Assembly (NCBI RefSeq): GCF_049554935.1
Contig: NZ_CP186926.1
Location: forward strand, 160,001 to 224,000
DNA from: Methanocaldococcus indicus
Lineage (GTDB): Archaea; AGJL01; Methanococci; Methanococcales; Methanocaldococcaceae
Direction: 5' to 3'
DNA: 64,000 nt
The notes beneath the pieces are model-generated. The model saw only the letters and a program-made list of their open reading frames with translations, had not been told where the DNA came from and ran no database searches. The stretch's first letter is position 1. Each line of letters begins with the position of its first letter. Shown here piece after piece: positions 4,926 to 11,702 of this stretch. The translations under genes and the position numbers were made by a program.

Positions 4926-7316
4926 TTATTTTGGAAGAATCATTTTTCTAATTTTTTCAACATTTTTTATATATTTTTTATTAAAGATTTTTGAGATTCT
5001 TTCAATTGCATTAAGTAATAAAAGAAGTTGCTCTAAATAGATATACAAATCTCCACTATAAACCATAATTTTATAATCTTCATACATTATCTTAGCTATT
5101 TGTCCTGGATTTTTTCCTGTTGCTCTCAAATTTAATATTATTTGTAAGATTTTTAAATGTTCATCTACTCCTTCAAATTCCATTATAATCTCTGTCAATA
5201 AATCTTTAATTTGCTTTTCTGATATTTTTCCAAAGTTTTCTTTTATTATCTCCAAAGCATCAAAGAATCTTATTGGTAAATTAATATTTAACATTTGGTT
5301 TAATTTATTCCTCAAAGTTGGAGATAAATAAACATTTTCAAAAGGCATAATCTCAATAATTAACTTTAAGATATCTTCATTTTTTAAAATACTCTCTTTA
5401 ATTTTTTCAGCTACTTTTGGATATAAAAAGGATAATGCAACAGCCCTACCATAGTTAGTTATATCTCTATTTTTAACCATACCATACTTTTGTAGGTTTT
5501 CTAATATCTTAGTTGTTGAGAATGATTTACCTATATATGGGACTCTTTCAATATCTTTTATATTTGCTGATAGAGTAGCTAAGATTTGCTCTTCTTCTTC
5601 ATCTTCTGTCCATTCCACTTTTATATCTTCTGGCTTAGATGTTAATAGTTTAAAAGCTACTTCATCCTCACTCTCAACCATCTTAGCATGATACTTTTTC
5701 CCTATCTCTACTAAAAGATAAACTTTCCCTAACTCATGCATCCCCTTCCTTCCAGCTCTTCCACACATCTGTTGGAATTCAGATGGTGTGAGCCACTCTC
5801 CCCCCATAGCCAAACTTTCCAATATAACAGTTGAAGCTGGAAAATCAACACCAGCAGCTAATGCAGCAGTTGTAACCACACATTGAATTCTTTGCTTAGC
5901 AAAATCTTCCTCCACCTTCCTTCTTCTAAAATAATCTAAACCTGCATGATAGTAATCTGCTTTAATTCCTTTTGATTTTAAAGCTCTTGCAATCTGTTCT
6001 GCTCTTCTCCTTGAATATGTAAAGATTAAGCACTGTCCCCTATAACTATACTTAGAGATTGTATTCCACTCTTTTTTAACAATCTCCTTAATTATATTTA
6101 TTTTATTGAATTCATTTTTACAAAAAATAAGATGCCTCTCCAATGGAACAGGTCTTCCATTATATAAAACTAAATTAGCCCCCAATTTTTTTGATAGTTC
6201 TTTTGGATTTCCAATAGTTGCAGATAAATAAATCTTTTGAGCATCTTTAAACTTCTCTCTTACTCTACCAATTAATCCATCTAATCTCGCTCCTCTCTCC
6301 TCTAAATTTAAAGAATGGACTTCATCAATTACAACAGTTCCAACATCTTTAAGTTTATTTGCCCTTATTAAATAATCTATTCCTTCATAAGTTCCAACGA
6401 TTATATCCGCATCTAATGAAGTATTAATATCCAACTTTTTTCCTATTCTTCCCATTCCTACTCTTAAAGCTACTTTAAATCCTAATTTTTCATATCTTTC
6501 TTTAAATTCTAAATACTTCTGATTTGCTAATGCAACTAAAGGAACTAAAAATAAAAATTTCTTTTTCTTTTCAATTAAATTCTTGATTCCTGCTAACTCT
6601 CCAATTAATGTTTTTCCTGATGATGTTGCTGAAACAATTAGCAAATCTTTTCCTTTTAATAATCCAGCCTTAACTGAAAGAGATTGAACTGGCAAAAGTT
6701 CATTTATATTTCTACTTTTAATAGATTTTTTAAGTTCTTCAGGAATATCTAAATCATCTATTTTTAACAATTCAATATCTTCCTTATCTCCTTCTAAAAC
6801 ATCAAATTTTGTTAGTTCTGGCTTAGATACTGGATTTTTTAAATTCAAAAGAGAAAGAACTTTATCAACATCTTTAAATTTTCTTAAAAATTTCTCTATT
6901 AGCTCATCTGGTAAATTAACTTCATACTTAACTTCCTCAATAGCACAATTTAAACAAATATAATAATTCATATATTTACATCTTGTTTTATTTGGTAATT
7001 TTTTATAAACCTCTTTTAATAGACAGAAAGGACATAACTTTATAAACTCATACTTAATATTTAAGCTCTTAAAAACATCTTCAAGCTCTTTATCAGCTAA
7101 ATAAACTTTTTTTTCTTTTTTTAAAAGTTCTAAAACTTTTGATGGTTGAATTAATTTATCTCCTAATCTACACTTAAATAATCTGTATCTATCTCCAACT
7201 TTCTTATATAAACAAAAAATTTTTTTATTCTTCTCTACCTTTTCACCTTCATCAATATTCTTAACTTTAACAATCTCAATTTCATCCTTTTTTTTCTTTT
7301 TCTTTATAATAATCAT
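4926..7316 (-). CDS. Archaea-specific Ski2-like SF2 DEAD/DEAH helicase (ASH-Ski2 type)
   Basis: SATSSGKT, DEVH, SAT, QMCGRAGR motifs; N-terminal CPFC...CLNC Zn motif. Confidence 0.88.
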   Translation of the reverse strand: MIIIKKKKKKDEIEIVKVKNIDEGEKVEKNKKIFCLYKKVGDRYRLFKCRLGDKLIQPSKVLELLKKEKKVYLADKELEDVFKSLNIKYEFIKLCPFCLLKEVYKKLPNKTRCKYMNYYICLNCAIEEVKYEVNLPDELIEKFLRKFKDVDKVLSLLNLKNPVSKPELTKFDVLEGDKEDIELLKIDDLDIPEELKKSIKSRNINELLPVQSLSVKAGLLKGKDLLIVSATSSGKTLIGELAGIKNLIEKKKKFLFLVPLVALANQKYLEFKERYEKLGFKVALRVGMGRIGKKLDINTSLDADIIVGTYEGIDYLIRANKLKDVGTVVIDEVHSLNLEERGARLDGLIGRVREKFKDAQKIYLSATIGNPKELSKKLGANLVLYNGRPVPLERHLIFCKNEFNKINIIKEIVKKEWNTISKYSYRGQCLIFTYSRRRAEQIARALKSKGIKADYYHAGLDYFRRRKVEEDFAKQRIQCVVTTAALAAGVDFPASTVILESLAMGGEWLTPSEFQQMCGRAGRKGMHELGKVYLLVEIGKKYHAKMVESEDEVAFKLLTSKPEDIKVEWTEDEEEEQILATLSANIKDIERVPYIGKSFSTTKILENLQKYGMVKNRDITNYGRAVALSFLYPKVAEKIKESILKNEDILKLIIEIMPFENVYLSPTLRNKLNQMLNINLPIRFFDALEIIKENFGKISEKQIKDLLTEIIMEFEGVDEHLKILQIILNLRATGKNPGQIAKIMYEDYKIMVYSGDLYIYLEQLLLLLNAIERISKIFNKKYIKNVEKIRKMILPK

Positions 7317-9246: not shown

Positions 9247-9262
9247 ATTAAAAAATAAATTT

Positions 9263-10327
9263 TTATTTGTTTATATTTAACTTAAGATTTGCAATATTTA
9301 CTATAACTTCTTTAAGCTTTTTATCTTCAATCTTTTCAGGAATAACATCAAAATCAATAATGTTCTCATAATCTTTTTCTTTTATTTTTGTATTTGTAAT
9401 TAAGCTTTCCATTTCTTCAAATTCTTTCAACATTCTCTTTAATCTTCTAAGTTCAATTTCTAATTTTATTAGTTTATCTTCATCTACCTTTTCATCTGCA
9501 AGCATTTGTAAATAATTGATAATTAACATATGTTCTCTAAATGTTAGTTTAGTTACTTTTCTTGTTGATTCAACATCTATTCCCTTAGCTATTTTCAATA
9601 ATTTTAATATAGCTTTTTCAGAGAGATATCCTAAAAAGTGATATTGATACAATACATCCTCTAAGTTTTCTTTACCTATAAGTGAAATTAAAACTTCTAA
9701 AAATTTCATAACCAAAAGAAACTTCTCTGGTGTTAGAGGGATATCTTCAATTTTATACCTTTTGTCTTTATTTTCAGTTTCAGTTATAGTAATATTCCCA
9801 TTTTTATTTATATTAACTTCTTCAAGATTTTCAATAACTCCTTCTCTAATTCCTGCTGGTGGTCTATTTGGTTTATTAAATTTTATTCTTTTTCTTTGTT
9901 TATTATCAATTATGTAAATTGGTCTATAATAGACAGTCTTTATTTTTTCAATTTTTGCCATTCTATGTTGAACAGTATCAGATGTTAATAATACAGAGTT
10001 TGTTTTTTTGGCTATTTCTCTAATCATTGCATCAAGTTCTCCACTCTCAGCCAAAGAAATTTTTTCTAAACTTGGCCTCTCTCCAACAAATACAACCTTA
10101 ATGTTGAGAATTTTTTCTGCTTTTCTTAATAATTCTAAAACATCTAACCCTATAAAACCTTCCATTCTTTTTTTATTAGCCATATTTTCAATTTCAGCCA
10201 ATACAACATTTGGTATATAAACTGTACAATTTCTTATCTTCCCAGTTTTAATTAATTCTTCTAAAACTCCATTAATTATTACTGAAGTATCTACACATAC
10301 ATCAATTCCATCAAACCCATCAAACAT
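9263..10327 (-). CDS. PIN-domain protein fused to a C-terminal FlaD/FlaE (ArlD/E)-like domain
   Basis: N-terminal VDTS...LAEIE...ELDAMI...LLTSD PIN signature. C-terminal EDIP..PE...MKFLE.LI...G...L.DVL..Y..LGYLSE...KLT.REH resembles the archaeal FlaD/E domain. GGGGA SD before ATG 10327. Confidence 0.7.
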   Translation of the reverse strand: MFDGFDGIDVCVDTSVIINGVLEELIKTGKIRNCTVYIPNVVLAEIENMANKKRMEGFIGLDVLELLRKAEKILNIKVVFVGERPSLEKISLAESGELDAMIREIAKKTNSVLLTSDTVQHRMAKIEKIKTVYYRPIYIIDNKQRKRIKFNKPNRPPAGIREGVIENLEEVNINKNGNITITETENKDKRYKIEDIPLTPEKFLLVMKFLEVLISLIGKENLEDVLYQYHFLGYLSEKAILKLLKIAKGIDVESTRKVTKLTFREHMLIINYLQMLADEKVDEDKLIKLEIELRRLKRMLKEFEEMESLITNTKIKEKDYENIIDFDVIPEKIEDKKLKEVIVNIANLKLNINK

Positions 10328-10411
10328 ACAAATCCCCCAAACACTTTTAATAAGATAATTATAAAAATAATTTTTAAAATTGTAGTATATAAATGTTGAT
10401 GGTCGTGAATT

Positions 10412-11702
10412 ATGCACTTTATAAAGCTAAAAAGAAGAGAAGAAAATATTAAAAATCTAAAAGAAAAGAGTAAAAAATTTAGGTTAAAATTTAGGGATAA
10501 AGAACTTAAAAATTATTTAAAAGAATATCCTTTAAATCTAAATAGATATTTAACCAACTACTACACAGGAGGAATTATAAAAAAATATCCTGAGGATTTT
10601 ATTGTTGAGGAGGTAACTCCTGAAAAGATAATTTTAGAGGTTGGAAAGAATATAGAGTTTAAAGATGTTGAGAATTGGAAAGGTAACTTTATTCACTTCA
10701 CATTAGAAAAAAAGAACTGGACTACCTTAGATGCTATTAGAGAAATAGCCAAAAAAGTTGGTGTAAAAAGGAAGCATTTTGGATTTGCTGGGAATAAGGA
10801 TAAAGTAGCTATAACCACACAAAGAGTTGGTTGTTTTAATGTTCCTCTTGATAAATTAAAAAATGTTAGAATAAAGAATATTGTATTAAGAGATTTCCAA
10901 AAAGTTAATAAAAAAATAAAACTTGGAGATTTGTGGGGAAACAGATTCACTATAAGAGTTAGAGAACCAAAAATTTTGGGAGAAGAACTAAAAAATATCT
11001 TAGAAGATGCTAAAAATAACTATACTCACTACATAAATTACTATGGAATACAGAGGTTTGGTGAAAAAAGGCCTATAACTCATATAGTAGGTAGATTAAT
11101 CTTAGAGAGAAATTGGGAATTAGCTTTCTATCTATATTGTGGAACTCCTCTAAGCTATGATGATGAAAAAAACAAAATTAGCAAGAAAATTAGTAGATGA
11201 GGAGGAATTTAAAGAAGCATTAAAAATTTATCCAAGGGTTTTTTTATATGAAAGAAGGATGATACAGGCCTATTTAGAGAGTGGAGATTATAAAAAAGCT
11301 TTTAAAATTTTACCACCTTATTTAAGATGTATGTTTGTAAATGCATATCAATCATATCTTTTCAATGAAATTATTAATAAGAGATATGAATATGGATTTA
11401 ACAAGTTAGAGGGAGATATAGTATATAAATATCCTACTGGTGCTGTTTTTGGTTATAAAGTTAAGTTTGCCTCAGGAATTCAGGGAGAGATAGAGAAAGA
11501 AATATGGGAAAGTGAAAATTTAGAAAGAGAAAAATTTAAAATTGAAGATTTTGGAAGTTTTCAGGGAGATAGAAGGGAGATGATACAAAAAATTTATAAT
11601 TTTGATTATATATTATACAATAATAGTTATGTAGTAAAATTCTGTCTAAGAAAGGGATGCTATGCTACAACTGTACTAAGAGAATTTTTAAATGAGAGGT
11701 GA
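10412..11702 (+). pseudogene. truD: tRNA pseudouridine(13) synthase interrupted by a one-base frameshift (or a sequencing error)
   Basis: PEDFIVEE, FAGNKDK, GNRF, NYYGIQRFG in ORF 10412-11200; AYQSYLFN, LRKGCYAT in ORF 11157-11702. Removing one A from A7 (11166-11172) joins them as YDDEKTKLARKL. Confidence 0.85.

Follow-up and report, generated by a model that had tools for sequence, protein, structure and literature searches.

The genome of Methanocaldococcus indicus contains a gene that joins, in a single reading frame, a PIN domain of the type found in the ATPase PINA to a domain of the type found in the archaellum proteins ArlD and ArlE (FlaD/E). It lies in a stretch of 64,000 nucleotides, here called the window (contig NZ_CP186926.1, positions 160,001 to 224,000, or G000:C1:160001-224000, G000 being the genome of the window), which is part of a 1.41-Mb contig. 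The fusion gene is real and lineage-specific, with two sister species as its only known holders. Its domain architecture is new and made from known domains, but it is not a new system; the latter designation, given in a preliminary description of the window, was too strong for a single gene that is held by two sister species under weak constraint. No description of a PIN-D/E fusion was found in the main texts of the literature searched, among which PMC10354927 mentions both "PIN domain" and words beginning with "archaell". In window coordinates the gene is composed as follows.

9263-10327, minus strand: coding sequence of the PIN-ArlD/E fusion, 354 amino acids (ATG 10327-10325, TAA 9265-9263; from the list of open reading frames (ORFs) and the translation)
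9953-10300, minus strand: PIN domain of PINA type, residues 10-125 (PF01850, 42.3 bits; PDB 3i8o, E 1.7e-32)
9770-9907, minus strand: polar linker, residues ~141-186 (from the pairwise alignment with the homologue of the sister species; low pLDDT, the predicted local distance difference test score, at its C-terminal end)
9413-9769, minus strand: ArlD/E-type helical domain, residues ~187-305 (PF04659, 43.9 bits; Pfam core 189-277, i.e., 9497-9763)
9266-9412, minus strand: family-specific C-terminal tail, residues 306-354 (predicted helical, with low confidence; 26% identity between the two species)

The frame is present and intact as described earlier, and the order of polar linker, FlaD/E domain and tail was borne out. 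In Pfam, PF01850 matches residues 10-125 with an E value of 1.4e-10 (cut-off 23.6 bits; G000:C1:169953-170300 in the genome scan) and PF04659 (Arch_fla_DE) matches residues 189-277 with an E value of 2.3e-11 (cut-off 21 bits). The latter match extends over profile positions 2-95 of 96, i.e., the whole domain, which settles the assignment of the C-terminal half to FlaD/E on which the preliminary description had made its proposal depend, and its core agrees with the position of "about 9750-9490" proposed there. A D/E profile of the Methanococcales matches G000:C1:169410-169775 with an E value of 1.3e-42. Neither T2SSE (PF00437) nor any KH family is reported in the Pfam scan of the protein, in line with the earlier statement that no ATPase or KH domain follows the PIN domain, and the NCBIfam model of the PINA ATPase (PRK13764) is matched at model positions 5-134 of 613 only (E 1.9e-33), with a score of 115.9 bits, below its cut-off of 340.

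The PIN part is 43-50% identical to the PIN domains of the PINA proteins of the Methanococcales, and the best solved structure by sequence is 3i8o, the PIN domain of MJ1533. The four acidic positions noted earlier (D13, E45, D99 and D117) and the PINA-typical segment GERP...SGELDAMIR indeed align with 18 PINA PINs and with 3i8o, and 36 of the 59 columns that are near-invariant among these 18 are kept in both fusion proteins, those of the four acids included. In a tree of PIN domains, those of the two fusions form a group (support 96/93, a starred branch) with that of a protein from a third genome of the genus (G002). The three have long branches and lie next to the PINA PINs of the order; the branch of the window copy measures 0.95 vs 0.19 for the copy of the sister species (G003). 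The near-invariant PINA columns that none of the three detached PINs retains are mostly charged (D19, R21, E40, E55, E62 and E63). Such a loss is to be expected in the absence of the native ATPase and may reflect relaxed contacts to it. The fusion PIN is best regarded as a duplicated PINA-type PIN, minus the ATPase and KH parts, and, with its four acids kept, it may be a metal-dependent nuclease. In PHROGs, the G003 homologue (P0002) and the G002 protein match a PhoH-like PHROG via their PIN domains. The G002 protein (284 amino acids; L016:4690-5544, i.e., G002:C1:245690-246544) has a PIN domain that is 40% identical to P0002 over 139 residues; its C-terminal ~140 residues match no Pfam family, are not similar to D/E domains and have no usable look-alike in the Atlas. 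Detached PINA-type PINs thus acquire differing C-terminal partners within the genus.

The D/E part aligns with 27 canonical D/E domains at 29-39% identity over ~120 residues. In the D/E tree, the fusion and P0002 form their own clade (99/98, starred), apart from 11 ArlD and 11 ArlE sequences, with ArlE on one side of a starred branch (99/97). When the two stand-alone domains described below are added, the fusion clade becomes a weak sister of ArlE (81/78), and a single clade of fusions and stand-alone domains is not rejected (p-AU, the p-value of the approximately unbiased test, 0.24); all branches of the D/E tree are long, which makes the placement unsure. We consider the fusion domain to be a third, divergent ArlD/E paralogue, belonging to neither the ArlD nor the ArlE group. 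Half of the columns conserved in at least 90% of the canonical D/E rows (13 of 26) are kept in both fusion proteins, and the polar residues that are kept comprise E211, N221, Y229, K248, H266, E290 and E292. Canonical ArlD and ArlE end with the D/E domain, whereas the fusions add a tail of ~45-50 residues with weak mutual similarity. The AF2 (AlphaFold2) model of the D/E domain consists of five helices (pLDDT 87.8), and that of residues 170-354 has a pLDDT of 75.8, with a tail that is helical at low confidence. Neither model has a Foldseek match at E<=0.001, in the PDB for the longer one; the best hit of the latter in VIA-wide (Z 5.8) involves the tail helices only, and that of the D/E domain in VIA-align has a Z of 4.9 (8ap6_H, 54 residues aligned, root-mean-square deviation 2.4). 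The fold searches with these models give no functional clue, and the predicted D/E fold is not thereby new.

Two stand-alone Arch_fla_DE paralogues occur elsewhere, in G028 (L058:1909-2463, a 185-amino-acid frame, 68.5 bits) and G032 (L057:2032-2571, a 180-amino-acid frame, 60.6 bits). Both adjoin rRNA-like, G+C-rich sequence far from any arl operon, lack a PIN domain, keep both tryptophans that are invariant in ArlD/E and form a separate clade (100/99, starred). In G020, a 74-codon ArlE-like fragment (G020:C4, L056:1970-2191) of near-identical motif content, with a stop codon counted inside the profile match, lies shortly before an SMC-like gene; its appearance is that of a remnant of a duplicated arlE and not of a fusion-type gene.

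The fusion is rare: a PIN domain and a D/E domain in one frame occur in 2 of 41 Methanococcales genomes, those of M. indicus and G003. The G003 homologue, P0002, has 313 amino acids and both Pfam domains and is colinear with the window protein across the junction in a pairwise alignment. By TSR3, G003 is the closest relative of M. indicus (83% identity vs 71-76% in the other 15 genomes of the genus). When 1.84 billion representative proteins were searched exhaustively with HMMER, 353 matched at E<=0.001, and only two of these, the fusion itself and P0002, fall at E<=1e-30. Among the best 150 of these 353 matches, eight further long or double ones (P0023, P0025, P0036, P0038, P0053, P0058, P0063 and P0090) were scanned and contain no PF04659, while P0069 (612 amino acids, two stretches) fell outside that scan; D/E domains fused to other PIN subtypes would score lower in this search and may rank below those 150. 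Likewise, in a word-indexed search of 5.8 billion clusters only the fusion and P0002 carry both domains. Word-indexed searches with the D/E region by itself or with an alignment yielded the fusion, P0168 and PINA ATPases; as P0002 and canonical ArlD/E escaped them, they carry no information on other architectures. The D/E profile search covered 30 genomes, all of Methanococcales. G003 is also the only one of the 41 genomes for which no PINA-type frame is listed; with the assembly 85% complete, the frame may be missing through a gap and not through loss. Should the loss be real, the fusion would be the sole PINA-type PIN of that species.

Selection on the gene was estimated by a crude Nei-Gojobori count of nonsynonymous over synonymous divergence (dN/dS) between the two copies. 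The PIN part is 62.8% identical with a dN/dS of 0.33, the D/E part 44.8% with 0.43, the tail 26% with about 1.05, and the whole protein 50.7% with 0.45 at a dS of 0.92; ~30 linker residues of the window protein have no counterpart in G003. Both domains are under weak purifying selection, yet evolve faster than nearly all genes compared. Since a dS of 0.92 is like that of ordinary orthologues (0.5-1.45 in 13 other gene pairs of the two species), the gene is about as old as the split between them.

The following signals, all of them read from the sequence, accompany the gene in DNA with a G+C content of ~25%.

10386-10393, minus strand: TATA box TTTATATA, consensus-like archaeal, 59 nucleotides upstream of the ATG
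10359-10367, minus strand: second TATA-like, A/T-rich stretch
10332-10338, minus strand: GGGGGAT, a purine-rich Shine-Dalgarno-like site, 4 nucleotides upstream of the ATG
9250-9255, minus strand: T6 run in the 16-nucleotide gap between the stop codon of the fusion gene and the end (9246) of the convergent L40e gene

TTTATATA resembles the established archaeal TATA consensus. GGGGGAT presumably serves the fusion gene as its Shine-Dalgarno site, and the T6 run is a possible oligo-T terminator. An alternative GTG start at 10417 gives a longer frame; its use is very unlikely, because the N-terminus of P0002 coincides with the ATG at 10327 and because both the TTTATATA box and the GGGGGAT site lie upstream of that ATG.

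The gene is flanked by TSR3 and L40e (convergent) on one side and by TruD (divergent) on the other, so that the earlier contention that no antitoxin, fla/arl or che gene is adjacent holds. The gene order is a Ski2-like helicase with DUF5814, an M20-type peptidase, TSR3, L40e, the fusion, TruD, HtpX, BioW and BioF, the identities of the peptidase and of the last three being our reading of their sequences. The G003 copy sits between Ftr and HMG-CoA reductase, one gene from a Hel308-type helicase, and the M. indicus orthologues of these three are dispersed along the contig. The TSR3-L40e pair is kept in all 17 genomes of the genus, with nothing conserved past it: after the pair, the other 16 have neither TruD, the M20 peptidase nor the fusion. 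Because synteny differs past this pair, the fusion gene sits at a rearrangement breakpoint, and synteny tells neither gain nor loss. TruD itself (PF01142; 10412-11702, plus strand) is split into overlapping frames at 10412-11200 and 11157-11702, which match the profile at 3-211 and from 206-298 onward. The break falls at an A7 run near 11165-11171 and reflects a frameshift, an error made in sequencing the homopolymer, or else a true pseudogene or a site of slippage. In both species a Ski2-like helicase lies within ~1-2 kb of the fusion (window 4926-7316, minus strand; L017:1353-3344, plus strand), a proximity that we note because PINA binds Hel308/Hjm. However, the two helicases differ, that of M. 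indicus having DEAD, Helicase_C and DUF5814 domains and a Cys-rich N-terminus and that of G003 being of the Hel308 type with domain 4 and HhH; the M. indicus orthologue of the latter is found at 458-461 kb. The adjacency is probably a coincidence.

Elsewhere in the M. indicus genome both presumed parents are present. A full-length PINA of 642 amino acids is encoded at 725 kb, which makes the fusion the second gene for a PINA-type PIN, and PF04659 is otherwise found only in ArlD and ArlE, which makes it the third gene with a D/E domain. The fusion replaces neither parent. The arl operon is complete: four archaellin-length frames (arlB; two were scanned, both PF01917) are followed by ArlC, ArlD, ArlE, F, G, H, I and J, of which the ArlF frame, having no Pfam family, is assigned provisionally from its position in the operon. 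CheW and a CheA-length frame are encoded at 302-306 kb, and there are two CheF-type genes in M. indicus (the search for CheF was confined to this genome of the two). CheA/CheW occur in 9 of the 17 genomes of the genus, both fusion holders included. CheW/CheA are absent from the other 8, five of these with a completeness of at least 98%, so that chemotaxis is patchily distributed within the genus.

The analysis shows the anatomy of the gene and the selection on it; what follows on its binding, place and activity is a matter of inference. The explanation that we tentatively favor, without calling it probable, is that the D/E domain joins the ArlC/D/E-ArlH assembly and tethers the PINA-derived PIN to the motor, where the PIN would be a local nuclease or would modulate the ArlI/ArlH hexamer. 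The gene arose when a duplicated PINA-type PIN was joined to a divergent ArlD/E-type domain with a short tail of its own. As D/E domains are known to do, that of the fusion would enter the ArlC/D/E assembly, which docks on ArlH on the cytoplasmic side of the motor, and so bring the PIN module to the motor or to the cell pole. The PIN retains its four metal-binding acids and could cleave RNA in that place, as a nuclease dependent on Mg or Mn. It might instead modulate assembly or rotation by contacting ArlI, a hexameric PilT-like ATPase, just as the parent PIN contacts the PilT-like ATPase ring within PINA. ArlC, D and E are thought to form a cytoplasmic ring around ArlI and ArlH and are often fused together (PMC8978795), so that fusion would be a normal way for D/E domains to keep a partner close. 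ArlD and ArlCE are mutually dependent, dock at the pole largely via ArlH and are required for CheF at the motor (PMC7534055), and CheF-family baits fished FlaCE and FlaD (PMC2666748). Both holders of the fusion keep an arl operon and CheA/CheW, which supports a tether at the motor. In its favor are also the end-to-end match of the D/E domain, the polar D/E residues that are kept, the intact PIN acids, the selection on the gene, its TATA box and Shine-Dalgarno-like site, and the precedent of ArlD2, a paralogue outside the operon. A complex prediction for the ArlD C-domain, ArlE and the fusion D/E domain (residues 184-317), with a score of 0.00 in two runs made without controls, speaks neither for nor against it.

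In a further "Rosetta stone" reading, which seems to us quite improbable, the fusion links two partners of PilT-like hexameric ATPases, and the PIN docks on ArlI/ArlH via the D/E domain as a brake or assembly regulator, or as an RNase; in the RNase version, a motor-tethered enzyme may couple the turnover of arl/che transcripts to the state of the motor. The PINA ATPase domain belongs to T2SSE (PF00437), the same family as ArlI. According to the paper on PIN classification, PIN domains had not been shown to be functionally linked to type IV pili (PMC5499597), and the reading, if true, would be the first to connect a "PilT N-terminus" domain functionally with a type-IV-pilus-like machine. As for the preliminary description, its architecture and genomic setting stand, while its motor-localized nuclease that couples RNA turnover to motility is retained here in the conditional form given above.

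Several observations weigh against a tether at the motor. The fusion gene lies outside the arl and che loci, with neighbors that differ between M. indicus and G003: no arl or che gene is near it in the window, and at 169 kb on the contig it is ~480 kb from the arl operon (~645-655 kb, same contig). The TACATA hexamer, reported as the EarA site of Methanococcus (bioRxiv 10.1101/2023.06.15.545098), occurs twice, 6 nucleotides apart, upstream of arlB1 of M. indicus (L018:12395-12425, minus strand), just ahead of an A/T-rich, TATA-like stretch; no such site is present in the 140 nucleotides upstream of the fusion gene. Seven che-positive genomes of the genus have no fusion. Both tryptophans that are invariant in D/E domains are replaced (F/I and Y/L), and 13 of the 26 conserved columns are changed. 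The dN/dS of 0.45 exceeds that of 12 of the 13 comparison genes (0.06-0.25) and equals that of the remaining one, a SpoIIM-family gene. Finally, G028, with its stand-alone D/E gene, is 99% complete and contains neither an archaellin nor an ArlD/E match; D/E-type domains can thus be maintained where the archaellum is lacking, which suggests D/E-type proteins with a role outside it.

The main alternative, in our view somewhat less likely than the tether, is one in which the D/E domain and tail form a self-assembly or scaffold module for a PINA-derived nuclease that works on RNA or branched DNA, independent of motility. The stand-alone paralogues of G028 and G032 and the archaellum-less state of the former speak for it, as do the loss of both ArlD/E tryptophans from the fusion and its position among housekeeping genes without the EarA motif. 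The parent PINA acts on Holliday junctions and replication forks (PMC6061704), and the PIN of G002, of the same clade, carries a different C-terminal domain, which indicates that the PIN is the constant part. Yet the fusion clade is separate from the stand-alone paralogues (even if the single clade is not rejected, as noted above), polar residues that are invariant in ArlD/E are kept, and both holders of the fusion are archaellated and have CheA/CheW. A rather improbable explanation is that the gene is an evolutionary accident, a chance fusion of duplicated fragments that is tolerated, functionless and on its way out. Its presence in only 2 of 41 genomes, its overall dN/dS together with the value of about 1.05 for the tail, the long PIN branch of the window copy compared to that of G003, and the linker residues without counterpart would fit such a relic. 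However, the frames are open over 354 and 313 codons in two species at a synonymous divergence that is saturating, which makes a functionless relic unlikely; by our own arithmetic, stop codons make up ~8-9% of random codons at ~25% G+C, and a 354-codon open frame would be expected by chance at ~1e-14. Moreover, dN/dS is below 0.5 in both domains, all four acids of the PIN and seven polar invariants of the D/E domain are kept, and a promoter and a Shine-Dalgarno-like site are present.

PIN domains are commonly toxins (PMC5499597), and the fast evolution and patchy occurrence of the fusion would also suit a VapC-like toxin or defense effector, in which the PIN would be a growth-arresting RNase and the C-terminal domain its regulator or sensor. 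We consider this very improbable: no small antitoxin-like ORF is present on either side of the gene in either species, the PIN subtype is PINA and not VapC, PADLOC assigns the window protein to no family and gives two weak matches for P0002 (E ~0.005), and no signal of a mobile element or phage was found. An assembly chimera or mis-joined frame, which the preliminary description had named as the other way in which its proposal could fail, is practically excluded: the window lies on a 1.41-Mb contig, and the same domain order, colinear across the junction at 51% identity, in the independent assembly of another species disposes of it.

If the D/E part of the fusion does target the motor, it would be a ready-made probe of D/E binding and an example of a nuclease-type domain recruited to a motility machine. 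No part of the euryarchaeal archaellum is less well understood than the cytoplasmic ArlC/D/E ring, for which stoichiometry, structure and partners are open questions (PMC8978795), and a fusion of a D/E-type domain with an enzyme-like module offers a handle on it. If it does not, then the fusion, together with the stand-alone gene of G028, would make the D/E domain a helical interaction module more general than its name, and the annotation of such genes as archaellum components would have to be tempered. Either way, the impact is limited, as only two species have the gene and it is under weak constraint.

Compared to known systems, the fusion shares with VapC the PIN fold family and the four acids, but VapC is short, stands alone and has an upstream antitoxin gene, whereas the fusion is a multidomain protein of 354 amino acids with a PINA-like subtype and no antitoxin ORF. 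Much closer is PINA (SisPINA, 5F4H; MJ1533, of which 3i8o is the PIN), which has the same PIN subtype, the four acids and the GERP...GE(I/L)DAMIR block. PINA is a hexameric ATPase with PIN, ATPase and KH domains that drives the migration of Holliday junctions and binds Hjm and Hjc via KH (PMC6061704); lacking the PilT/T2SSE ATPase and KH, the fusion cannot be a branch-migration motor. The G002 protein belongs to the clade of the fusion PINs and has lost, like them, the DGR and PE motifs of PINA, while its C-terminal half is unrelated. The stand-alone proteins of G028 and G032 resemble the fusion in being PF04659 paralogues that lie outside arl operons and have a short extension at the C-terminus, and differ from it in having no PIN, in keeping the tryptophan pair, in their separate clade and, for G028, in the missing archaellum. 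With ArlD and ArlE the fusion shares the full-length Arch_fla_DE domain and differs from them by its own clade, the lost tryptophan pair, the extra tail, the N-terminal PIN and its position outside the arl operon. In the last respect it is like ArlD2 of Haloferax volcanii, a second ArlD that is likewise an extra copy outside the operon and for which no motility phenotype was reported (PMC7534055).

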